Shown: positions 99 to 11,774 of the stretch, in pieces
Layout: each line of letters begins with the position of its first letter
Position numbering within the stretch: position 1 is the stretch's first letter
Position numbers and translations under genes: made by a program
Assembly: GCF_002218085.1 (NCBI RefSeq)
Contig: NZ_BDUC01000003.1
Coordinates: 974,565 to 988,205 of the forward strand
Reading direction: 5' to 3'
From: Tolypothrix sp. NIES-4075
GTDB taxonomy: Bacteria > Cyanobacteriota > Cyanobacteriia > Cyanobacteriales > Nostocaceae
Length of the DNA stretch: 13,641 nt
The notes under the pieces: generated by a model
What the model saw: only the letters and a program-made list of their open reading frames with translations
Databases searched by the model: none
Told to the model about the DNA's origin: nothing

Positions 99-149
99 AA
101 TTCAACGTCATTGCCTCAAGTTGAAGTTATAAACTCGGATTTTGCACTG

Positions 150-385
150 TTGAACCTGAAGTTTCATGCTCAGAAGCTCAACGTTCACCCTCAGAAGCTC
201 AACATTCACCTTCAGAGGCTCAACATTCACCTTCAGAGGCTCAACATTCACCTTCAGAGGCTCAACATTCACCTTCAGAGGCTCAACGTTCACCTTCAGA
301 GGCTCAACATTCACCTTCAGAGGCTCAACGTTCACCCTTTGAGGCTCATCGTTTATGCTTTGAGGCTCAACTTCCGAGTTCCAAG
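150..385. repeat. Tandem array A. The 21-bp unit is gctcaacRttcaccYtcagaR. Eight well-conserved copies span 176..343, with degenerate copies on both sides.
   Basis: Unit boundaries read directly at 176, 197, 218, 239, 260, 281, 302 and 323. Each unit is three related heptamers (gctcaac/attcacc/ttcagag), like the STRR-type heptamer repeats of heterocystous cyanobacteria. The array starts about 55 nt after the stop of the upstream TPR gene. Confidence 0.95.
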
Positions 386-476
386 GTTGAATGATGGTGT
401 TAAAAGGCGTAAACGTAGCCCACCCAGGACAAAATTAGCTACGATCAATCATATAATTATTTTCACAAACACAGAA

Positions 477-686
477 ATGTTAATTACATACACGGCAAAA
501 TATACAAAAACTAATAGCGGATATATGGGACAACTGATTGAATGGCAAGAAGTCATCACAGAAGGAGAAACCATAGAAGAATGTAGGGTGATGTTGCAAG
601 ATGCAACCAAAGAAATGATTCTCGCTTATCGTCAACAAAATAAAGAAATTCCCACAGGTGATTTATTGCTCAACAAATTCCTATAG
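477..686 (+). CDS. HicB-like / UPF0150-fold antitoxin-family small protein (69 aa). No adjacent HicA is visible.
   Basis: This is an internal ATG of the 111..686 ORF. The product is MLITYTAKYTKTNSGYMGQLIEWQEVITEGETIEECRVMLQDATKEMILAYRQQNKEIPTGDLLLNKFL. It shows the pattern typical of small HicB-family antitoxins: beta-strand, G-Y/F, then E..GxTxEE and a helix. Everything upstream of 477 in this ORF is translated repeat array. Confidence 0.6.
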   Translation: MLITYTAKYTKTNSGYMGQLIEWQEVITEGETIEECRVMLQDATKEMILAYRQQNKEIPTGDLLLNKFL

Positions 687-1598: not shown

Positions 1599-2030
1599 AT
1601 GGAACCTGTAACAATCACAACTGTAGCAACAGCGATCGCCACAATAGTTTTCACTAAAGCCCTAGAAAAAACAGGCGAAAAGCTTGGAGAAGCTGCATTA
1701 AACCAAAGTCATAAGTTAATCGAACAGCTACGCCATAAGAATAAGTTACCATTACTAGCGAATGCCACACCAGAAAACCAAGAACGATTAGATTATGGCA
1801 AAGCAGTACTGGAGTTGAAAGCAGCAGCAGACGCAGATAGCGAAATTGCTGAATCAGTCCGGTCTGTAGAAGCAGCAGCAAACGCCGATGCACAAGTTGC
1901 GCCAAAAGTCAAAGAGTTAGCAAATGATATCAACTCGCAACCAGCAGGTGTAATCAATTCTACAAAGTTAGCTGAATCGATTAAAAACGTCTTTCAGGGA
2001 AATACTTTTAACGGTACTAATATCTTTTGA
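1599..2030 (+). CDS. 143-aa hypothetical protein. It has an N-terminal hydrophobic helix, an Ala/Asp/Glu-rich helical region and an N/G/Q-rich C-terminal tail. It may be the detached or read-through N-terminal effector module of the downstream NLR-like gene.
   Basis: ATG-initiated ORF. The N-terminus is MEPVTITTVATAIATIVFTKALEKTGEKLGE and the tail is IKNVFQGNTFNGTNIF*. It is in the same reading frame as 2091..4178, and only the TGA at 2028-2030 lies between them. Confidence 0.6.
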   Translation: MEPVTITTVATAIATIVFTKALEKTGEKLGEAALNQSHKLIEQLRHKNKLPLLANATPENQERLDYGKAVLELKAAADADSEIAESVRSVEAAANADAQVAPKVKELANDINSQPAGVINSTKLAESIKNVFQGNTFNGTNIF

Positions 2031-2090
2031 CTCTGTACGTCCGAACGGGAACGGACAAAGTTAAATCCCCCTATTATAATACCGCATAAT

Positions 2091-4178
2091 TTGCCCTGGA
2101 GTGGGGTGACGGAGTTTGTCGGGCGTGAAAAAGAACTCGAACATCTCCACCAACTCTTGCAGGGAAATGACTCTGTGGCGATCGCGGCTGTTGCTGGTAT
2201 GGGTGGCGTGGGTAAAACAGAATTGGCGTTGCAATATGCACTTAGTAAGCGCGAATTTTACTCAGGTGGGATTTGCTGGTGTCAAGTTAAAAGCGGCAAT
2301 GTCGGTTTGCAGGTGGTGCAATTTGCTCGCATTCACCTAGAATTAAACCCCTTGACAGATTTGGATTTAGTCGGGCAGGTAAAATATTGCTGGCAGCGCT
2401 GGCGTGAGGGTAAAGTGTTGCTAGTGCTGGATGACGTCACTATATATAAGGAAATTGTGCCGTATTTACCGCCGTCATCCTCCCGATTTAAGGTGCTGAT
2501 GACAACCAGAAAGCACTTCGGGCAGATTTCTAAATTACCATTAGATGTGCTGCAACCACAAGCCGCGCTGGAGTTGTTGCGAAATCTCATCGGCGCAAAA
2601 CGGGTTAATGTAGAGACGCGAAATTTCGCGTCTCTACCTGAAAGGTTGGGATATTTGCCTTTAGGGATAGAGTTAGTTGGACGGTATTTAGCAAGAAAAG
2701 AGGATTTGTCCCTCACAGAAATGTTGAAAAGGTTGGAGAAAAAGAAACTCTTTGAGCGTTCTTTATCTCAGCCAGAAGAAAACATGACAGCACAGCAGGG
2801 TGTGCAAGCAGCATTCGAGTTAAGTTGGCAAGAATTAAACGATACAGATAAGCAATTAGCGTGTTTGCTGAGTTTATTTGCTGCTGCACCGATACCTTGG
2901 GAGTTAGTGAAACAGTGCTTAAGTAGTGCGGATGCAGAAGAGTTAGAAGAAAGTCGGGATGATAAGCTGGTGAATTTGCATTTGCTACAGCGTAAGTCCA
3001 AGGGAGTTTATCAACTGCATCGACTGCTGCGAGAATTTTTTCAAGCGAAGTTAGAAGCACCACCTTTGCAGGAAAGTAGCAGGAATTTTAAACAAGCTTT
3101 TACCACAGTAATGATAGCAGTAGCCAAATATATTCCTCAAACCCCCACCCTTAAGTTTATCACCGCTGTCTCCCCCGCTATGCCTCATTTAGCAGAAGTA
3201 GCGAAGAATTTTATTCAACATATTAGCGATGAGGATTTAATCTGGGCTTTCGTCGGGCAGGGTCGATTTTACAATGGTCAGGGATTGTATGCTCAAGCAG
3301 AACCTTGGTTTAAGCTGTGTCTAGAAGTTACTAAAAAGCGTTTGGGAGACAACCATCCTTATGTAGCGCAAAGCTTAAACAACCTAGCAGGACTTTACAA
3401 ATCCCAAGGACGTTACCCAGATGCCGAACCATTGTACCAACAAGCTTTGCAACTAATGCGACACCTGCGGGGAGAAGAACATCCCTATCTTGCACCTACC
3501 CTCAACAGCTTGGCGGAACTCTACCGTTCTCAAGGACGTTACGCAGATGCCGAACCATTGTACCAACAAGCTTTGCAACTTCGGCGACATCTGTTGGGAG
3601 AAGAACATCCCGCTGTCGCAGTTAGCCTTAACAACTTGGCGTTACTTTACTATTATCAAGGACGCTATACTGAAGCCGAACCTCTAGCACTCCGAGCAAT
3701 AGAACTAGATAAGCAGTTTTTAGGGGAAAAGCACCCCGATTTAGCTACAGATATTCACAATTTGGCTTTGATATACCGCGCTCAAGGACGCTATAGCGAA
3801 GCAGAACCATTGTTTCTGGAAGCTTTGAAACTCAAACAGCTTCTACTGCCAGAAGATCATCCTCTTTTAGCAGATACTATCTACGCTCTCGGTTATATGT
3901 ACAGAATTCAGGGTTGCTACACTAAAGCAGAAGCATTTTCCATAAAAGCATTGGAACTCGATAAACGTTTGCTGGGAGACAATCATCCCCATGTCGCGCA
4001 AAGCTTAAACAACTTGGCAGAACTCTACAAATCTCAAGGAAGTTACAGCCAAGCCGAACCTTTATTGCAAGAAGCTTTAGATATTTTTCAGCGTCAGTTA
4101 GGTGTGAATCATCCCCACACTATCACTGTTCGTGAAAATCTGGCAACTCTTCGTGCTGAGATAACTTCAAAGCAGTAA
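2091..4178 (+). CDS. NB-ARC (STAND P-loop NTPase) plus seven 42-aa TPR units: a bacterial NLR-like protein. The start is uncertain. TTG 2091 is the track's start and GTG 2106 is the alternative. The frame is open upstream to the TGA at 2028.
   Basis: Walker A is [11 protein letters not shown] (nt ~2196-2228) and Walker B is VLLVLDDV. An NB-ARC-like region with LPLGIELVG follows. From about nt 3243 there are seven kinesin-light-chain-type TPR units (NLAxLYxSQGRYxxAEPLxxxALxxxxxxLGxxHPxVAxSLN). Confidence 0.9.
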   Translation: MPWSGVTEFVGREKELEHLHQLLQGNDSVAIAAVAGMGGVGKTELALQYALSKREFYSGGICWCQVKSGNVGLQVVQFARIHLELNPLTDLDLVGQVKYCWQRWREGKVLLVLDDVTIYKEIVPYLPPSSSRFKVLMTTRKHFGQISKLPLDVLQPQAALELLRNLIGAKRVNVETRNFASLPERLGYLPLGIELVGRYLARKEDLSLTEMLKRLEKKKLFERSLSQPEENMTAQQGVQAAFELSWQELNDTDKQLACLLSLFAAAPIPWELVKQCLSSADAEELEESRDDKLVNLHLLQRKSKGVYQLHRLLREFFQAKLEAPPLQESSRNFKQAFTTVMIAVAKYIPQTPTLKFITAVSPAMPHLAEVAKNFIQHISDEDLIWAFVGQGRFYNGQGLYAQAEPWFKLCLEVTKKRLGDNHPYVAQSLNNLAGLYKSQGRYPDAEPLYQQALQLMRHLRGEEHPYLAPTLNSLAELYRSQGRYADAEPLYQQALQLRRHLLGEEHPAVAVSLNNLALLYYYQGRYTEAEPLALRAIELDKQFLGEKHPDLATDIHNLALIYRAQGRYSEAEPLFLEALKLKQLLLPEDHPLLADTIYALGYMYRIQGCYTKAEAFSIKALELDKRLLGDNHPHVAQSLNNLAELYKSQGSYSQAEPLLQEALDIFQRQLGVNHPHTITVRENLATLRAEITSKQ

Positions 4179-4410: not shown

Positions 4411-4470
4411 TTCCACCTAAAAGGATTAAAGCACGCTCATGCGATCGCATGAGTCTGCTGTGCGGCGCAT
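4411..4470. repeat. HIP1-centred dispersed repeat (family copy 2 of 3). This is the uninterrupted reference copy.
   Basis: The sequence is ttccacctaaaaggattaaagcacgctcatgcgatcgcatgagtctgctgtgcggcgcattacatt. It contains the 18-bp perfect palindrome ctcatgcgatcgcatgag. Confidence 0.7.
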
Positions 4471-5264: not shown

Positions 5265-5556
5265 GTCTGCCCGCGTTGCTTTCACCCAACATTCTTGAGG
5301 GCAATAAAACGCAACATCAACGATATCAATGTGCTGCGTCATGTTCTTTGAGCAAAACTACTGAAAAGAGTTTTCATTGCGTATAAACACTAAATACTGT
5401 CAGTATGAAAACGCTTTTTTCTTAAGCGAAAAAGCTTCATAAATTCACTTTAACTTTACCCGATTAAAGTGGATAAAAATTAAATTAGCTAATGAAATGG
5501 CTGAATCTGTTGCAAATAAACAGATTCGCATAACATCAAAAATTAGCGAGACAACT

Positions 5557-6633
5557 ATGACAGTAACTATCAAAAAATTATTGGTTGGTGCAACCGTAGC
5601 AGCAAGCATGAGCGCGATCGCTTCAACTCCAGCTTTCGCTACCAACCTTACCAAACCGACTAATATTCAATTCACCACCAACGGTGTCAAGAACACAGAT
5701 GCCAATAAAGCTAATATCAATACCTGGACTTACGGTTCTGTGGAATCCGATAAGACTGGTATCGGTGGTGTGAACCGACAAGTTTTAAACGATTATAAAA
5801 ACTACGGCAATACCAATAAAGCGATCGCAGCTTTAACAGACAACGATAGTACTACTAACGTTGAACTGTTTAACAATGGTGAAAATGTCTCAGATCATGT
5901 TGGCTTCACTGCTAATTTAGGAAAAAACACCATTAAGGTTGAAAGTGTCACTAAGGCTGACTGGGCTGATGGTACATTAGCGAAACAGTGGTTGACAGGC
6001 TTTAGCAATACTTACAGCGGATTAATGGCAAGCACTGCTACAACTCCTGGTTCTAACCTGCTCAAAGATTTTAATAATAATTTTGATTCTATAGTCAGCT
6101 ACCTCAGCACTAACGGTTTTAAGAGGGCTGACGATCCTAATATTGGGGATATTTCGTACGATAAACAGACTGGTAATTTGAAAGTTGACCTAGTTGGACA
6201 CTTGGATCTGGCTGGAAAATATGTAGATACCAGAAAACAAATTAAAGTGGGTAACACATTAGTAAATAACCCGGCTTATGGCAAAGGTTTATCGCCTGAG
6301 TATGACAGTTACAAGACGGGAAATGTAATCTTTGATGCAATGCTGTTTAGGTTATCTCAAACAGCAGTAGCCACAAATACAATGTTACAAATGAGTGAAA
6401 TTGCTAAAGTAACTTTCAATGGTCAAGTTGACTACGCATTTACCTTCGCAGCAAAAGATTCCGGTGCTATAGCAGGCGATCGCAACAAGCTCACTGATAC
6501 CACATCTCACACCGGCATTTACTCTTGGAATAAGACTCGCAAGAGAGTACCCGAACCTTCAGCCATTTTCGGTTTAGTAGCTGTCGGTGGTTTAGTAGTT
6601 GCTTCACGACGCAAGCGTATGCAAAATGCGTAG
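5557..6633 (+). CDS. PEP-CTERM-anchored secreted protein with an uncharacterised passenger domain. The alternative upstream ATG at 5497 is judged less likely.
   Basis: From ATG 5557 the product is MTVTIKKLLVGATVAASMSAIASTPAFA|TN..., a classic signal peptide. The C-terminus VPEPSAIFGLVAVGGLVVASRRKR is the PEP motif, a TM helix and an Arg-rich tail, i.e. the PEP-CTERM/exosortase sorting signal. Confidence 0.85.
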   Translation: MTVTIKKLLVGATVAASMSAIASTPAFATNLTKPTNIQFTTNGVKNTDANKANINTWTYGSVESDKTGIGGVNRQVLNDYKNYGNTNKAIAALTDNDSTTNVELFNNGENVSDHVGFTANLGKNTIKVESVTKADWADGTLAKQWLTGFSNTYSGLMASTATTPGSNLLKDFNNNFDSIVSYLSTNGFKRADDPNIGDISYDKQTGNLKVDLVGHLDLAGKYVDTRKQIKVGNTLVNNPAYGKGLSPEYDSYKTGNVIFDAMLFRLSQTAVATNTMLQMSEIAKVTFNGQVDYAFTFAAKDSGAIAGDRNKLTDTTSHTGIYSWNKTRKRVPEPSAIFGLVAVGGLVVASRRKRMQNA

Positions 6634-6909: not shown

Positions 6910-9357
6910 TTAGCCAACACTTGTTAATAACAACTCGCGTTTTTCTGTCTTACGTACTACCACCTGACCGTCGTCGTCAACGTCAACAATGGCTGAGTCT
7001 CCATCAACGACTTGACCGGATAGCATTGCTTCGGCGAGAGAATCTTCCAAAAGGCGCATAATCGCTCTACGTAACGGTCTAGCACCGTAGCTGGGGTCAT
7101 AACCTTCTTGTACCACACGCTCTTTGAAGCGTTCTGTGACTTCTAAGGTAATTCCCTTTTCAGTTAAGCGACCAGCAACTTCTTTGAGCATGATTTGGGC
7201 GATTTGCTTGACTTCTTCTTTGTTCAACTGAGTGAAGACGATAATCTCATCCAGACGGTTGAGGAACTCAGGACGGAAGTAAGCTTTTAATTCTTCGTTC
7301 ACCAAAGTTTTGATGCGGGTGTAATTTGCATCGGCTGCATTTTCGCTGAAATCGAAGCCCAAACCACCACCACCTTTTTCAATCACCTTAGAACCGATGT
7401 TAGAAGTCAAGATGATCAAAGTGTTCTTAAAGTCCACTTTTCGACCTTTCGCATCACTGAGATGACCGTCATCTAAGATTTGCAGCAGCATATTGAATAC
7501 ATCGGGGTGCGCTTTTTCGATTTCGTCGAATAGCAGCACTGTGTATGGTCTGCGGCGCACGGCTTCGGTTAGTTGTCCGCCTTCGTCGTATCCGACGTAA
7601 CCAGGAGGCGAACCAATTAACTTAGAAACGGTGTGACGTTCCATGTATTCCGACATATCCAAGCGAATCATTGCTTCTTCAGAACCGAAGAAGTAACTCG
7701 CTAAGGATTTTGCTAACTCGGTTTTACCGACTCCGGTAGGACCAGAGAAAATAAAGCTAGCGATCGGACGGTTGGGATTTTTTAAGCCAACTCTAGCGCG
7801 ACGAATGGCGCGAGATACTGAGGTAACTGCTTGTTCTTGACCGATAAGCCGTTGGTGGAGAGTATCTTCTAAGTGTAGAAGCAACTCTGACTCAGATTCG
7901 GTCAGCTTGTTGACGGGTACACCAGTCCAGGAAGCCACGATTTGGGCGATGTCTTCCTCATCAACGATTCCGTGGAAAGTTGCCTCGTTTTGTGATTCTA
8001 ATTGCAGTTGCGCTTCAATTTCTAACTCTTGGTCGCGCAGTTGTCCTGCTTTGTCAAAATCTTGAACTCTAACGGATTCATCTTTAGCTTTGGAAACGCT
8101 GATGAGTTGGCGCTTGAGTTCTTTGTTGGTAGAAGACATCGAGTTCCGCAGACGAACGCGAGAACCGGCTTCATCAATCAAGTCTATTGCTTTGTCTGGT
8201 AAGAAGCGATCGCTAATATAGCGGTCTGACAACTCAGCCGCAGCTTTTAGCGCTGCATCTGAAATTGTGACTCTGTGGTGCTGCTCGTAAACGCTCCGCA
8301 AGCCCTGTAGAATCTCGATGGTTTCCTGTACAGTGGGTTCCCCGACCATAATCGGTTGGAAACGACGCTCTAGAGCTGCATCGCGCTCGATGTGCTTGCG
8401 ATACTCATCAAGGGTAGTTGCTCCCAAGCATTGAAGTTCACCTCGCGCTAATGCTGGCTTGAGAATATTAGAAGCATCCAAGCCGCCTTCTGTGCCACCT
8501 GCACCAACAAGCGTGTGAATTTCATCTATCACGAGGATGATATTACCCGCCGTGCGGATTTCCTCCATGATTTTCTTCAGGCGTTCTTCAAAATCGCCAC
8601 GGAAGCGAGTACCTGACACCACCGAACCCATGTCTAGGCTGATAACTTGCTTGTCTTGCAAAATATCCGGCACATCTTGATTTATAATGCGTTGTGCTAG
8701 ACCTTCGGCGATCGCTGTTTTGCCTACTCCTGGTTCGCCAACCAACACTGGGTTATTCTTCGTGCGGCGACCGAGAATTTGCACGGCACGCTCAATTTCT
8801 TTTTCTCGACCAACTACAGGGTCAATCTTGCCTTCTTTGGCTAGTTTGGTGAGATTTCTGCCAAACTCTTCTATACTCAGGTTTTGGGTGCGTTTTTGAC
8901 CACCACCTGCGGTAACGCTTGCATCATCACCCAAGCGGCGAATGACTGCACTGCGGACACTTTGTAGCTCAACTCCCAGATTTTGCAGTACTTTGGCGGC
9001 AACGCCCTCACCAGCTTCAGTCAATCCCAAAAGTAGATGTTCTGTGTTTATGTAGTTGTGTCCCAGACTGCGAGCTTCTTTAAATGATTGCTCAAACAGG
9101 CTTTTTACTTTGGGTGTAAAGGGAATTTCTGGTGGTACAAAGCCTGTACCGCGACCAATGATTTTTTCTACTTCTCGACGTGCGTCTTTGAGGGTAACAC
9201 CCAACTCAGTCAGCACTTTTGCAGCCACCCCAGTTCCTTCTCCCATCAAGCCCAGGAGAATCTGTTCTGTGCCTACAAAGTTGTGTCCCAGGCGCCGAGC
9301 TTCCTCCTGAGCTAACATAATTACTCTAATGGCTTCGGAAGTGAAGTGTTCAAACAT
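6910..9357 (-). CDS. clpC: ATP-dependent Clp protease ATP-binding subunit ClpC (class I Clp/Hsp100, two AAA+ modules).
   Basis: The 815-aa product starts [37 protein letters not shown], followed by a second Clp_N repeat ([14 protein letters not shown]). Walker A motifs are GEPGVGKT and GPTGVGKT. There is a short UVR-like middle motif ([23 protein letters not shown]) and a GLGF ClpP-docking loop. The length and short M-domain fit ClpC rather than ClpB. Confidence 0.93.
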
Positions 9358-9613: not shown

Positions 9614-9910
9614 ATGACAGACGCATCTGTAGGTAAAGACCAACAACATCCGCTTTACAATCGCGATCGCCCTCTAATAGATAGTTTACTATCTCAAGAG
9701 CCAACAGATTACAATTTAGCAGAACTTGCTAGACTGCGAATGCGTTATCAAGGCTTTCCAGGTGCGAGAGACATCCAACAGAGTTTAGATAAAGTCTTGC
9801 TTACTTGGGGTTTGACAGAAGCGGAACTTTATGACAAAACCCGCCAAATTCACAACTTTGCGAAGATTTACAAAACTCGCGGCAAAAAAGAAGAACAAGA
9901 TTGGAATTAG
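9614..9910 (+). CDS. Small conserved cyanobacterial protein of unknown function. I believe it belongs to the DUF3288 family.
   Basis: The 98-aa ORF contains PTDYNLAELARLRMRYQGFPGARDIQQSLDKVLLTWGLTEAELYDKTRQIH. I recognise this as a cyanobacteria-restricted small-protein family. It is divergent from clpC. Confidence 0.7.
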   Translation: MTDASVGKDQQHPLYNRDRPLIDSLLSQEPTDYNLAELARLRMRYQGFPGARDIQQSLDKVLLTWGLTEAELYDKTRQIHNFAKIYKTRGKKEEQDWN

Positions 9911-9927
9911 GTATTGACACTCCCCCA

Positions 9928-10489
9928 CTAAGCTGATGAAGCCTTCTGACCTGCGACTAAATTTAATCGAGCAATTTTATTGCGTTCTGCTTGCTTGGTG
10001 ACAAGCTCAATAATGATTTGTCCGTTGTTTCCTAAAGCTGCAAGCAGACGCGATCGCCATTGCTGCACTTGCTCATCTGACTCACCGAGTAGTTGCTGTA
10101 CTAATTTTTGCAGAGCATTTGCGATCGCGCTATAGGGAATATTGCGCTGGAATTGATCAAATTTCCCCCAGATAAAATAGCCGCGCTTTTGGGTAATTGG
10201 TTTATATATTTCCTGCACTAACGCAGACTTCCCAATGCCAGCATAGCCAGATACCAACATCATTTCGACTTGGAATTTTGGGTTGCCCCCTTGTTCGGTT
10301 TGTGAAGTCGTTTCTCAATTGTTTGGTAAAGCAGCGACGCGATTTGACTCTGGACACGCTACGCGAACAAACGCCGCCAGTAACATTGTAACTTCCTTGT
10401 CCCGTCCATAAAGTTTTTGGGGAATTTGAAACTGATTACAAACGTCTTGAAGTGCCAGCTCAATACTAAAGATTTGACCGATTTCTTCT
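9928..10489 (-). pseudogene. Remnant, distal part, of a multidomain Ser/Thr-kinase/AAA-ATPase sensor protein. It covers the kinase-AAA linker and the Walker A region, has an in-frame TGA and is truncated at the 3' end.
   Basis: The two track ORFs (10315..10503 and 9928..10263) share a frame and are separated only by a TGA (plus-strand tca, 10315-10317). Motifs are FQIPQKLYGRDKEV..LLAAF and MLVSGYAGIGKSALVQEIYKPITQKRGYFIWGKFDQFQRNIPYSAI, typical of cyanobacterial kinase-AAA-GAF-histidine-kinase proteins. Everything after ...GNNGQIIIEL degenerates, and the ORF ends 18 nt from the neighbouring gene. Confidence 0.8.
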
Positions 10490-11462
10490 ATAGCAACCGC
10501 CAAGGCGGTTTGAGTATAAACTGGAAGAGTCCGTTTCCTTTTCCTGCAAAGCGCGATCGCGCTAACATATGCCCAAACCTTACAGTTACGACCTTCGTCA
10601 AAAGGTCATCCAAGCCATTGAACTTGATGGCTTGAAGAAAAGCGAGGTCAGTCAACTGTTCAATATTAGTCGCAATACCATAGACTTATGGCTGAAGCGA
10701 AAAAGCGAAACAGGCGACTTCCAAGCCTTAGCGAACAAGCCTCCTGGGAATGGTCATAAAATTACCGACTGGGAAAAATTCCGAGAGTTCGCTTTATCTC
10801 ATGGGGATAAAACCCAAGTCGAGATGGCCTCACTTTGGGAGGGACAAATCAGCGATCGCACCATTTCACGAGCGTTAAAAAAAATTGGCTTCACTCGAAA
10901 AAAAAGACCTACGGCTACCGTGAGCGCGATGAAGACAAACGGCAAGCGTTTGTAGCGCAGTTATCCACCCTATCTGTAAAGAAAATTGTTTACCTTGATG
11001 AGTCTGGTATGGATAACCGAGAGGACTATGAGTATGGTTGGAATGAAAAAGGGCAGCGCTTCCATGCAATGCGCGTCAGGCCGTCGTCAGGGTCGGGTAA
11101 ACATGATTGCCGCACTATGTGACCAAAACTTGATCGCTCCCTTCACTATTGAGGGTGCATGTAATCGAACAGTATTTGAAACATGGTTGGAAACCTGTTT
11201 GCTTCCTATACTCGAACCAGGACAGGTTGTAGTCATGGATAATGCAACGTTCCATAAAGGTGGGTGCATTCAACAACTGATCCAGGATGCGGGATGTGAA
11301 GTGCTATACTTACCACCTTATTCTCCAGACCTTAACAAGATTGAAAAATGCTGGTCTTGGTTAAAAAGTCGAATCCGCAAAAAGCTGGATCAGTTCGATT
11401 GTTTACGAGATGCCATTGAGCATGTCTTGCGTTTGACGTCTTAACCGCCTTGGCGATTGCTA
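10490..11462 (+). mobile_element. IS630-family (Tc1/mariner-like) insertion sequence, 973 bp, with 20-bp terminal inverted repeats and a TA target-site duplication.
   Basis: The left end is tagcaaccgccaaggcggtt (10490-10509). The right end is aaccgccttggcgattgcta (11443-11462), whose reverse complement tagcaatcgccaaggcggtt matches 19/20. It is flanked by TA at 10488-10489 and 11463-11464. Removing the IS and one TA restores the host reading frame (...ADQLEEIGQIF...). Confidence 0.9.
10569..11444 (+). CDS. IS630-family DDE transposase. Three frame segments (0, then -1, then back to 0) are needed to make the full protein, so this copy is probably defective.
   Basis: The HTH N-terminus is MPKPYSYDLRQKVIQAIE...SRNTIDLWLKRK. 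The catalytic residues sit in YLDESG, VVMDNATFHK and PYSPDLNKIEKCWSWLK. The frame changes at the A8 run 10898-10905 and again near the gcgcg at 11070-11075. Confidence 0.85.
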
Positions 11463-11774
11463 TAATTGATCAGCACAGATTTCTAAATCCGCTTTGATTC
11501 CCCAGGCACTCTGATAGCGATCTTCTGCATTTTTTGCCATCAGTTTGAGAATGATATCTGAAACTGGCTTGGGAATCGTTGTATTTATTTCATGAGGCAG
11601 AGGTGGCTGCTTGGCAATATGACAATGGACTAGCTCAAGGATGTCCGTTGTTGGAAACGGCAGATGTCCGGTTAGCAGTTTGTAGAACGTCACACCAAGA
11701 AAGTAAAAATCGGTGCGGTAATCGAGTAAACGGTTCATCCGTCCGGTTTGCTCTGGAGATAGATATGCAGGCGC
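11463..11774 (-). pseudogene. Remnant, proximal part, of the same Ser/Thr-kinase gene. Only the kinase C-lobe is present. The N-lobe and catalytic loop are missing, and weak similarity may extend to about 11837.
   Basis: The minus-strand translation is ...APAYLSPEQTGRMNRLLDYRTDFYFLGVTFYKLLTGHLPFPTTDILELVHCHIAKQPPLP...AEDRYQSAWGIKADLEICADQL. This carries the kinase subdomain VIII-XI signature of cyanobacterial sensor kinases. An in-frame TGA lies at 11775-11777, and there is no recognisable kinase sequence further upstream. Confidence 0.8.

Follow-up and report, generated by a model that had tools for sequence, protein, structure and literature searches.

Bell/BASS-NLR pairs (Dyrka et al. 2020, bioRxiv 10.1101/2020.01.06.895854; Bab/Agp in E. 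coli, bioRxiv 10.1101/2024.11.07.622273) combine a helical effector of ~120 aa, which begins with a hydrophobic helix and ends in a short G/N/Q-rich tail, with an NB-ARC/TPR or NACHT NLR encoded directly downstream on the same strand. A hydrophobic helix at the N-terminus is a hallmark of Bell/HeLo-type domains. The pipeline of Dyrka 2020 demanded that a motif be present on both genes (bioRxiv 10.1101/2020.01.06.895854). The locus described here occupies positions 1599-4178 of the forward strand of a 13,641-nt stretch of DNA from Tolypothrix sp. NIES-4075 (the window). It shares this organisation and, like the pairs, its arrangement is confined to filamentous, multicellular cyanobacteria. Unlike in the pairs, the NLR appears to have neither a start codon nor an N-terminal motif copy; one in-frame UGA, together with an RNA structure, takes the place of the intergenic region, the start codon and the second motif. 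Comparison of related loci suggests that programmed UGA read-through probably joins effector and NLR, so that 1599-4178 would be one recoded gene.

Viruses and eukaryotes offer well-known cases of programmed stop-codon read-through. For genes on bacterial chromosomes we are aware of essentially no documented case, of none with a covarying 3' pseudoknot, and of no established precedent for stimulation by a pseudoknot. Further, no earlier description of UGA read-through in loci of this kind was found in the literature open to search.

Organisation of the locus

The preliminary description had placed the ORF at 1599-2030 (ATG start, 143 aa) and that at 2091-4178 (TTG start) in one frame, interrupted only by the TGA at 2028-2030. 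Translation bears this out, giving 860 codons with one internal stop; the intervening 2031-2090 reads LCTSERERTKLNPPIIIPHN and holds no stop. The features are as follows.

1599-2027, + strand: upstream ORF, Bell-like helical effector of 143 aa and proposed termination product (exact match to GAX42350.1, Tolypothrix sp. NIES-4075)
1599-1673, + strand: hydrophobic N-terminal helix (MEPVTITTVATAIATIVFTKALEKT), the best-conserved part of the family (alignment A1, AF2)
1962-2027, + strand: C-terminal G/N/Q-rich tail (TKLAESIKNVFQGNTFNGTNIF), putative amyloid signalling motif (alignment, AF2, related tails)
2028-2031, + strand: candidate recoding site, UGA stop with C at +4 (conservation, leaky context)
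2031-2038, + strand: 8-nt spacer, CUCUGUAC in the window, family consensus CUR-NAN-UC (alignment)
2039-2056, + strand: stem 1 hairpin, GUCCG 2039-2043 with CGGAC 2052-2056, loop AACGGGAA (covariation, RNAalifold)
2047-2069, + strand: putative stem 2 (pseudoknot), GGGA 2047-2050 with UCCC 2066-2069, A-rich connecting loop AAAGUUAAA at 2057-2065 (covariation, shuffles)
2031-2126, + strand: putative read-through linker and conserved pre-P-loop segment (LCTSERERTKLNPPIIIPHNLPWSGVTEFVGR), including the nominal starts TTG 2091 and GTG 2106 (open frame, codon pattern)
2127-2768, + strand: NB-ARC NTPase domain, Walker A GMGGVGKT at 2196-2219 (PF00931, E = 3.2e-15, residues 33-246 of the 715-aa frame)
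3246-4178, + strand: TPR sensor repeats, then TAA 4176-4178 (TPR_12, E = 1.9e-97, 6 stretches; TPR_10, E = 7e-74, 7 stretches; TPR_NPHP3)

With an NB-ARC domain carrying Walker A and followed by TPR repeats, the downstream protein belongs to the STAND NTPases of the NB-ARC type. By sequence homology, the upstream protein is a member of the Bell/BASS amyloid-signalling family, related to the Bell proteins of BASS5/BASS7 pairs, and supplies the helical effector of a Bell/BASS system. It aligns over its full length with the small proteins of loci L061 (64% identity, residues 1-136) and L106, and positions A12, I13, T15, T19, K20, E23, G26 and E27 are invariant in alignment A1. AF2 predicts an all-alpha fold of 7 helices (pLDDT 67), one of them at residues 6-25, with disorder at residues 134-143. 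No Pfam model matched the protein and Foldseek returned no match in the PDB, leaving Bell-fold membership without confirmation from structure search.

The small-protein family comprises 403 representative relatives, nearly all of 120-160 aa. Its tails, G/N/Q/T-rich in the 143-aa protein, differ from member to member on a conserved domain, as swappable variants. Each of the 120 top-ranked homologues in the database is a stand-alone protein of about 140-150 aa, and among the best 150 representatives only 3 are long, atypical proteins. A fused protein with a sense codon at the TGA position was not found among the small-protein homologues; judged from these sequences, both the free effector and the fusion seem to be needed.

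Conservation of the stop codon

An NB-ARC or NACHT NLR adjacent to and collinear with the small protein is found in the window and likewise at ~70 loci. Comparison of orthologues, which the preliminary description had proposed as a check, puts TGA at the position in question in 81 of the 82 distinct related cassettes; the one non-stop cassette has AAC. At genome level, the small ORF ends in TGA in ~72 of 78 loci and the frame then stays open for 300-1135 codons. A pattern made from the pseudoknot described below, which left the stop open, matched 32 metagenome sequences, and in 31 of these a TGA stood exactly 9 nt ahead of the match. The arrangement occurs in Nostoc, Scytonema, Tolypothrix, Anabaena, Calothrix, Fischerella, Brasilonema and other genera; the cassette was not found in viral contigs. 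Loci in PCC 7120-like Anabaena/Nostoc genomes belong to the cassette family (L112 is the Anabaena PCC 7120-like locus), and the complete genomes bearing a cassette include CP183817.1 and AP018288.1.

These distributions bear on two of the readings offered earlier, a TGA introduced by sequencing or assembly error and a recent nonsense mutation that left a decaying or dead NLR. Viewed in isolation the window does resemble a split gene, and some relatives are truncated downstream (L045, L069, L098 and the second copy in L081). However, the exact 143-aa sequence recurs in independent NCBI, JGI, ENA and Logan assemblies, so the TGA is not a sequencing error. A recent mutation is contradicted by the same TGA in the same place at ~80 distinct loci, across many genera and with small-protein identity down to ~54%, followed by intact downstream frames. 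The probability left to either reading is negligible.

The TGA-C context noted in the window is borne out and is a property of the family: C stands at +4 in 78 of 81 TGA cassettes (anchored on the pseudoknot and pooled over all loci), against a background of 11/254 (4.3%) for TGA-C as the terminator of long ORFs in the same loci. The first codon after the TGA is CTA or CTG in 72 of the 81. UGA followed by C, and UGA-CUA, form a leaky context (PMC7026636), and the stop at these loci is thus both conserved and in such a context. A point against read-through is that the window's spacer codons, CUC UGU ACG, deviate from the consensus CUA CAG UCG.

An open downstream frame without a conserved start

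Gene callers annotate two genes at such loci, in line with a rival reading of two separate proteins, with UGA as an ordinary terminator and the NLR initiated at GTG 2106 or TTG 2091 by translational coupling, re-initiation or an internal promoter; the RNA structure would then act on coupling, on the stability of the mRNA or on its processing, and not on decoding. Separate, tightly linked genes are also the ordinary state for Bell proteins and NLRs, as this reading expects. The preliminary description had argued against an independent start from the absence of any ATG ahead of Walker A and of a purine-rich Shine-Dalgarno sequence. The first point holds, the sole ATG, GTG or TTG codons there being TTG 2091 and GTG 2106. 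The second does not: GGAG at 2098-2101 precedes GTG 2106 with a 4-nt spacer, which makes the argument from a missing Shine-Dalgarno weak. This GTG is codon 26 past the stop. Within the NB-ARC subgroup that codon is a GTG of unusual conservation (36/39 Val, third-position entropy 0.17), which follows G-rich sequence and may serve as an internal start there. Further, a promoter-like CGGACA-17-TATAAT lies at window 2052-2080, although the TATAAT is confined to close relatives of the window.

Against initiation within the linker stands the behaviour of the frame itself. Frame 0 between TGA and Walker A contains no stop in 64/64 loci, over 52-113 codons, whereas frames +1 and +2 contain stops in 64/64, and all differences in linker length among these loci are multiples of three; an untranslated linker would need neither an open frame nor frame-keeping indels. 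Codons 14-25 and 26-55 show a coding pattern, with third positions the most variable, and the first of these stretches precedes the conserved GTG. A conserved independent start for the NLR was sought across loci and none emerged, the first ATG, GTG or TTG falling anywhere from codon 1 to codon 72. Among 73 distinct cassettes, 1 has no start at all before Walker A and 14 have their first start ≤22 codons from it, inside the NB-ARC domain. For the same Anabaena gene, annotation pipelines choose different starts or none.

Protein comparison points the same way. The segment '..NLP.SG..FVGRE.EL', named in the preliminary description as a conserved pre-P-loop stretch, is indeed conserved and translated in ordinary NB-ARC proteins with N-terminal domains (P0123, P0126, P0128). 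NACHT-type loci carry a conserved 'TPINW...YVPL.LV.R' upstream of any start, 90% identical to the ATG-initiated NLR of L061. Lastly, an NLR started within the linker would be without a signalling motif, whereas the two-gene relatives carry one. The downstream frame is therefore open and coding-like and shows no initiation site of its own, with the caveat of the GTG that the NB-ARC subgroup conserves at codon 26; two separately translated proteins are considered unlikely, though this is the strongest of the competing accounts.

The two-gene relatives, L061, L066 and L106, have the classic form: the NLR starts at an ATG of its own and carries a separate copy of the motif. The C-terminal tail of their Bell protein matches the N-terminus of the NLR, and the motifs are the published BASS5/BASS7 (Table S2, Dyrka 2020). 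It is only at these three loci that a motif copy sits on a separately initiated NLR; the window has none. The tails of the read-through type (FQGN, NLNQAQ, VAQQI, GTNYGG) are absent from the published motif-pair table (Dyrka 2020). At L106 an ordinary NLR ORF includes the linker peptide SSERERVKSNPP, and the pseudoknot sequence is kept there without a stop, so some other role for the element or for the peptide it encodes is conceivable.

The RNA element downstream of the stop

A small hairpin, GUCCG 2039-2043 with CGGAC 2052-2056 and an 8-nt loop, had been described 8 nt past the stop. The hairpin stands, but the description was incomplete, since it is probably part of a pseudoknot. Stem 1 is paired in 98.2% of cells across 65 sequences, with compensatory changes at 3 of 5 pairs: CG and UA interchange in 14 sequences at one pair and in 22 at another, and GC and CG in 4. 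This covariation includes a synonymous third position of Pro changing with the second position of Arg/Gln, and RNAalifold independently predicts the same stem.

The covariation makes it likely that the loop of stem 1 pairs with 2066-2069 to give the pseudoknot. Stem 2 is paired in 91.6-92.6% of cells versus 23-65% with a slid partner, a level that shuffles never reached (0 of 2000 or 5000), and its pairs covary as GGGA/UCCC, AGGA/UCCU and GAGA/UCUC; NACHT-type cassettes add a fifth G-C pair. Over codons 1-13 past the TGA, conservation is as high at third positions as at the first and second. It should, however, be noted that stem 2 has only 4-5 bp and lies inside coding sequence, and that the single-sequence fold of the window is not significant (z = -1.3), its MFE structure differing from stem 1. 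A covarying 3' structure thus lies ~8 nt from the stop, where it would presumably stimulate read-through.

A conserved hairpin just 3' of an in-frame UGA also recalls selenocysteine, with the hairpin acting as a bacterial SECIS element read by SelB. The hairpin geometry, with a G-containing apical loop that starts ~16 nt from the UGA, is loosely compatible with a bacterial SECIS. Selenoprotein families, however, usually have Cys homologues, and Cys (TGT/TGC) occupies the position in 0/82 cassettes; the site is an interdomain linker rather than a redox centre, covariation of stem 2 favours a pseudoknot over a SECIS stem-loop, and the window contains no tRNA gene. Further, the Sec-decoding trait went undetected in Cyanobacteria when genomes were surveyed for it (PMC1794560, PMC1273633). 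Selenocysteine insertion is accordingly rated very improbable.

Proposed mechanism and implications

Regulated UGA read-through yielding a free effector and an effector-NLR, one of the possibilities first raised for this locus, is the reading that the comparative evidence supports: the TGA-C is virtually invariant, the downstream frame is open and coding-like without a conserved start, the 3' structure covaries, and the cassette interchanges with a two-gene form. The occurrence of read-through, its rate and the identity of the inserted amino acid are inferred. Most ribosomes would stop at UGA 2028-2030 and release the 143-aa Bell-like effector with its C-terminal amyloid-type tail. A minority would decode the UGA, most likely with near-cognate Trp-tRNA, and go on in frame, favoured by the weak UGA-C and by the compact pseudoknot that, 8 nt downstream, would sit at the mRNA entrance of the ribosome. 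The product, of ~859 aa, would comprise effector, tail, linker, NB-ARC and TPR; the NLR would take its start and motif from the upstream ORF and would therefore need neither of its own.

Triggering of the TPR sensor may make the NB-ARC domains oligomerise, and the clustered tails could nucleate an amyloid fold that templates the abundant free effector, whose hydrophobic N-terminal helix would damage the membrane and cause an abortive, altruistic cell death. The amyloid behaviour of the tail is presumed from its composition, its disorder in the AF2 model and the homology of related tails to BASS5/7; the membrane action of the effector is likewise presumed. The Bell/BASS two-gene system would thus have collapsed into one gene, in which seed and substrate motifs always match.

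A broader and more tentative proposal, which we hold as somewhat less than an even chance, is that UGA-C plus pseudoknot forms a portable recoding cassette between effector modules (Bell-like proteins, alpha/beta hydrolases) and NLRs in filamentous cyanobacteria. One gene would then give a fixed small amount of fusion as seed and a large pool of free effector as substrate, both sharing the same prion-like motif. As the rate of read-through depends on RF2 and tRNA status, the cassette might in addition tie the amount of immune receptor to the translational stress that comes with infection. Amyloid seeding gives no explanation for the hydrolase-type loci L091, L097 and L100, where the cassette follows alpha/beta-hydrolase modules without an amyloid-like tail.

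More than 80 distinct cassettes show the full comparative signature of read-through. If the proposal is true, it adds a third bacterial NLR architecture beside two-gene amyloid pairs and all-in-one fusions, and explains both the apparent lack of a start codon in many cyanobacterial NLR genes and the disagreement among pipelines. Making seed and substrate from one gene would also remove the need for two motif copies to co-evolve, which fits the free swapping of tails on a conserved domain. Annotation of loci with the cassette is systematically wrong: it gives a 'hypothetical protein' and, after it, an NLR truncated at the 5' end. PCC 7120 is a genetically tractable model strain and PCC 7120-like genomes are in the family, so the read-through idea is directly testable; at the PCC 7120-like locus, the region matching window 2031-2090 would give the tryptic peptide LNPEIPQNLPLSGVVK.

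Comparison with known recoding systems and NLRs

Among described systems, bacterial selenocysteine insertion (UGA, SECIS and SelB) resembles the locus in having an in-frame UGA closely followed by a conserved hairpin; it differs in the missing Cys variants, the linker position, the favoured pseudoknot and the Sec trait, which has not been detected in Cyanobacteria. 'All-in-one' fungal NLRs, with a HeLo/HeLo-like or SesB-like lipase N-terminus, have the same order of effector or hydrolase, NOD and repeats as the proposed read-through product. They are plain fusions, whereas the cassettes keep the stop, which suggests that the free effector is also wanted.

In coliphage Q-beta, a leaky UGA at the end of the coat gene gives the minor extended protein A1, needed beside the major short one, and a leaky UGA in a bacterial translation system is what is proposed here. 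We know of no stimulatory 3' structure for the Q-beta signal; unlike that phage gene, the cassette is cellular and carries a covarying structure. The MuLV gag-pol signal is alike in its in-frame stop, 8-nt spacer and compact H-type pseudoknot with an A-rich loop. Differences are the stop (UGA-C here versus UAG-G), the bacterial ribosome and release factor (RF2), the chromosomal setting and the smaller, putative pseudoknot (5 bp + 4-5 bp). From the MuLV signal come a short protein in abundance and, rarely, a fusion extended at the C-terminus; the same output is proposed for the cyanobacterial cassette.

One frame interrupted by a single TGA

ORF calling and translation bore out the preliminary description: the ATG-initiated small ORF (1599-2030, 143 aa) and the TTG-initiated NLR ORF (2091-4178) share one frame, the TGA at 2028-2030 is the sole internal stop in 1599-4178, and the 20 codons beyond it, LCTSERERTKLNPPIIIPHN, contain no stop. 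Across the junction the frame reads NVFQGNTFNGTNIF-X-LCTSER, where X is the residue at the UGA. The downstream frame encodes an NB-ARC domain (PF00931, E = 3e-15, residues 33-246 numbered from 2031) followed by TPR_12/TPR_10 repeats. No ATG precedes the Walker A motif (GMGGVGKT, 2196-2219), and TTG 2091 and GTG 2106 are indeed the only canonical starts there. The claim that neither start has a Shine–Dalgarno sequence was wrong for GTG 2106, which has GGAG at 2098-2101, 4 nt upstream.

Conservation of the TGA

A sequencing error or a recent nonsense mutation had been proposed as the source of the TGA. The exact 143-aa protein is GAX42350.1 (Tolypothrix sp. NIES-4075), and entries with the same sequence appear in NCBI, Logan, UniRef and nr. 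It falls in a 23-member 90%-identity cluster whose members, from JGI, ENA, Logan and NCBI, are mostly 143 aa long. A search of 5.8 billion proteins returned 219 relatives of the small protein, the best 120 of which are all stand-alone proteins of ~140-150 aa from Nostocales (97-44% identity). Of 80 genomic loci compared, the small ORF ends in TGA in ~72, nearly always with C next, and beyond it the frame stays open for another 300-1135 codons, encoding a STAND NTPase. The NTPase is of two kinds, an NB-ARC type (..NLPLSGVVKFVGRE..GMGGLGKT) or a NACHT-like type (..TPINW..YVPLGLVERK..). Among distinct cassettes (the stop, an 8-nt spacer and the RNA element described below), TGA occupies the stop position in 81/82. 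The recurring protein, the conserved TGA and the intact downstream frames exclude a pseudogene or a sequencing error, and a TGA at the same place in so many loci disposes of a recent mutation.

The base after the stop is C in 78 of the 81 TGA cassettes, against a TGA-C background of 4.3% of long-ORF ends in the same loci. Further, when metagenomes were scanned with the pseudoknot pattern only, the stop being left unspecified, 31/32 matches had an in-frame TGA exactly 9 nt upstream. The TGA is best regarded as part of the RNA element. Viral contigs gave no match for either cassette variant. It should also be noted that some contigs carry tandem cassette-bearing systems, namely L081 (4004, 9648), L108 (5186, 8113) and the overlapping stretches L002/L043 of NZ_KK073768.1, and that some copies are truncated soon past the linker (the second copy of L081 after 25 codons; L098 by a TAG two codons beyond the TGA), which suggests turnover. 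Complete genomes bearing the cassette are AP018288.1, AP018194.1, CP019636.1 and CP183817.1; the last holds an Anabaena/Nostoc PCC 7120-like locus (L112, CP183817.1:4563265-4571723) with its TGA at 4457.

Codons for Cys, Trp or Arg occur at the stop position in none of the 82 cassettes. The lack of Cys variants speaks against decoding of the UGA as selenocysteine, an unlikely reading given also that the UGA lies in a linker and that the selenocysteine trait was not detected in Cyanobacteria (PMC1794560, PMC1273633). A junction-spanning protein query of 5.8 billion proteins found no sense-codon fused version. As for orthologues with a single fused ORF, the searched proteins included no NB-ARC fusion like the predicted read-through product. 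When 1.84 billion representatives were searched with a profile, the 150 best included only three long relatives (P0293, 823 aa; P0226, 700 aa; P0224, 364 aa), none of this type. In these a Bell-like domain is joined to a dynamin-like GTPase, to the C-terminal half of a NACHT/HEAT protein or to a coiled coil ending in another N-rich tail.

Two other routes into the downstream sequence were considered and rejected. An RF2-type +1 frameshift at UUU-UGA-C, or transcriptional slippage at the T4 run, would lead into the +1 frame, which, read from the sequence, meets a conserved UAA in 'GG GUA AAG' ~10 codons on.

A coding linker without a conserved start

The stretch from TGA to Walker A, 52-113 codons long, was compared in 64 distinct loci. 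Frame 0 contains stops in 0/64 loci and frames +1 and +2 in 64/64, and length differences are multiples of three throughout. From codon 14 onwards the linker is under ordinary coding constraint: codon-position entropies are H3 0.57 > H1 0.42 > H2 0.32 for codons 14-25, and H3 0.87 vs H2 0.22 for codons 26-55. Further, NACHT-type sequence past the TGA is up to 90% identical to an ATG-initiated NLR (locus L059 vs the two-gene locus L061), and this identity already begins ahead of the first possible start codon of the read-through loci.

The first ATG, GTG or TTG past the TGA ranges from codon 1 to codon 72. In a set of 73 distinct cassettes, a start before Walker A is missing altogether from one, and in 14 the first start lies ≤22 codons from Walker A, i.e. 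inside the NB-ARC domain. In PCC 7120-like strains a predicted linker peptide upstream of any start is LNPEIPQNLPLSGVVK. There different gene callers put the NLR start at 4529 in L111 and at 4541 in L112 and called none in L113, although all three are assemblies of essentially the same Anabaena/Nostoc locus. These NLR genes are thus systematically mis-annotated.

Independent initiation of the NLR is possible in the NB-ARC subgroup, in which codon 26 is a conserved GTG behind a G-rich sequence. The window also has a promoter-like CGGACA-17-TATAAT (10/12 matches; 2052-2080, + strand) that overlaps the pseudoknot and lies shortly before TTG 2091. However, the TATAAT is confined to the window's closest relatives and the promoter-like site is not conserved. 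Initiation of this kind would also leave unexplained the universal linker frame and its openness, the loci without a usable start, and an NLR that lacks a signalling motif.

An RNA element after the stop

Conservation of the 40 nt past the TGA extends to the nucleotide level. Across codons 1-13, third positions (entropy 0.45) vary as little as first and second positions (0.39 and 0.52), and in several of these codons the third position is invariant while the first or second varies. The hairpin noted in the preliminary description (2039-2043 with 2052-2056), here stem 1, exists as described. Over 65 sequences, 98.2% of its cells are paired, and 3/5 pairs show compensatory changes (CG<->UA in 14 and 22 sequences, GC<->CG in 4); RNAalifold recovers it independently. 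One pair couples the synonymous third position of a Pro codon with the second position of an Arg/Gln codon, for which selection on the protein offers no reason.

A second stem would join the loop GGGA (2047-2050) to UCCC (2066-2069), past a conserved 9-nt A-rich stretch. Stem 2 is short and lies inside coding sequence, and is paired in 92.6% vs 30-65% when slid, a value equalled by 0/2000 shuffles in a register-aware count. In an enlarged set of 83 sequences it is 91.6% paired (0/5000 shuffles). It covaries as GGGA/UCCC, AGGA/UCCU and GAGA/UCUC, and NACHT-type loci add a fifth G-C pair. Together the two stems likely form a compact H-type pseudoknot beginning 8 nt past the stop, the window's spacer being atypical.

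The case for a structured RNA is one of covariation, not of energy. The single-sequence fold of 2028-2075 is not significant (z = -1.3), and at the MFE the sequence forms an extended hairpin instead of stem 1. Rfam has no family at 1400-2400 even at E <= 1, and ARAGORN found no tRNA in the window. An outer helix between UGACU (2028-2032, the stop plus 2 nt) and AGUUA (2059-2063) in the A-rich loop is pairable in 98% of the 65 sequences, one pair alternating between G-U and G-C. This figure is uninformative either way because both sides are nearly invariant and lack covariation evidence. The sequence AAAGUYAA is strongly conserved.

The effector module and its two-gene relatives

The small protein has a highly conserved hydrophobic N-terminal helix, a helical body and, at residues 122-143, a ~20-aa disordered G/N/Q-rich tail, which occurs as several unrelated variants on one conserved domain. 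Neither Pfam nor PADLOC placed the single sequence or any of the 36 aligned members in a family at E <= 1. The AF2 model has 7 helices (pLDDT 67). Foldseek found no PDB structure that matches this model at E <= 0.001, so the Bell/HeLo fold is putative.

The assignment comes from three relatives in which effector and NLR are two separate genes, the classic arrangement. The small proteins of L061 and L066 have the C-terminus ..KLAEKIGQVVVGGTGSIQNQSF, and the NLR encoded a short distance downstream opens with MPEDTGKFAEKIGVVAHNSTVNIHNQNI..; the L106 counterparts are ..ENWKGINIKGGNPNISNNTFNF on the small protein and MTDENWQGINLKGGNPTIKDNVINF.. on the NLR, where the linker ISSERERVKSNPP comes next. 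The paired sequences correspond to BASS5 and BASS7 Bell/NLR pairs listed by Dyrka et al. 2020 (Table S2), which identifies the small-protein family as the Bell domain of NLR-associated amyloid signalling. Tails of the read-through type are not in that table, as expected, because the published screen demanded a motif on both genes (Dyrka et al. 2020).

At L106 (2861-3340) the NLR, which starts at ATG 3270, retains the full pseudoknot sequence, translated as ISSERERVKSNPP and without a preceding stop. This locus may represent an intermediate stage of evolution, or it may point to a second role for the element or its peptide.

The cassette also stands behind other Bell-like subfamilies. It is further seen behind alpha/beta-hydrolase modules in L091 (stop 887, - strand), L097 (stop 1610) and L100 (stop 1475), and so is not tied to Bell domains. 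These hydrolases are DUF676/PGAP1-like (weak Pfam matches, E ~1e-4) with GxSxG as HSLGG/HSMGG, lack an amyloid-like tail and lead into NACHT-type NTPases.

Neighbouring genes

Other features of the window
111-686, + strand: UPF0150 (HicB-like) ORF, just upstream of the NLR locus
717-1319, - strand: DUF433 (1089-1319) and DUF5615 PIN-like (717-1079) pair, resembling a toxin-antitoxin module
5497-6633, + strand: protein weakly matching PEP-CTERM (E = 0.0014, below the Pfam cut-off)
6910-9357, - strand: ClpB/ClpC-type AAA+ chaperone
9614-9910, + strand: DUF3288 protein
9928-10263, - strand: AAA_16/NACHT fragment flanking the IS630-family element
10569-11444: IS630-family transposase frame (HTH_Tnp_IS630 + DDE_3) with two in-frame stops (TAG, TAA)
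11460-11738, - strand: protein-kinase fragment flanking the IS630-family element

The genes at 5497-6633, 6910-9357 and 9614-9910 have no obvious functional tie to the NLR locus. Within 9928-11738 a second STAND-type gene appears to have been broken by the IS630-family insertion.

Probable programmed read-through and known systems

The simplest account of all these observations is programmed UGA read-through, which we judge probable. UGA with C at +4 and CUA or CUG as the next codon is a leaky context (PMC7026636). Termination at the UGA would release the free effector, and occasional read-through, presumably aided by the pseudoknot and placing some amino acid at the UGA, would yield a single chain of effector, tail, linker and NLR. 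The upstream ORF would thereby provide the NLR with its start codon and signalling motif. At Bell-type loci one gene would supply both partners of an amyloid pair with motifs identical by construction, which fits the free exchange of tails and recent switching between the two architectures; amyloid templating and membrane damage would belong to the same putative scheme. That the stop has not been swapped for a sense codon argues that the free effector is also needed. The hydrolase-type cassettes do not fit this seeding rationale, and a more general role, such as keeping the full-length NLR rare, is possible.

Among the papers searched on cyanobacterial NLR/Bell systems we found no mention of read-through or recoding, and the terms 'stop codon' and 'readthrough' are absent from Dyrka 2020, Kaur 2020 and the 2026 STAND papers. 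The cassette is present in PCC 7120-like Anabaena/Nostoc strains, where the model can be tested. To our knowledge, pseudoknot-stimulated read-through has no bacterial precedent. The geometry of the cassette is that of the MuLV gag-pol read-through signal, in which a pseudoknot also lies 8 nt past the stop. The components are of known kinds, Bell/BASS-NLR signalling on the one hand and read-through with a 3' pseudoknot on the other; what appears to be new is that a bacterial chromosomal gene family combines them.
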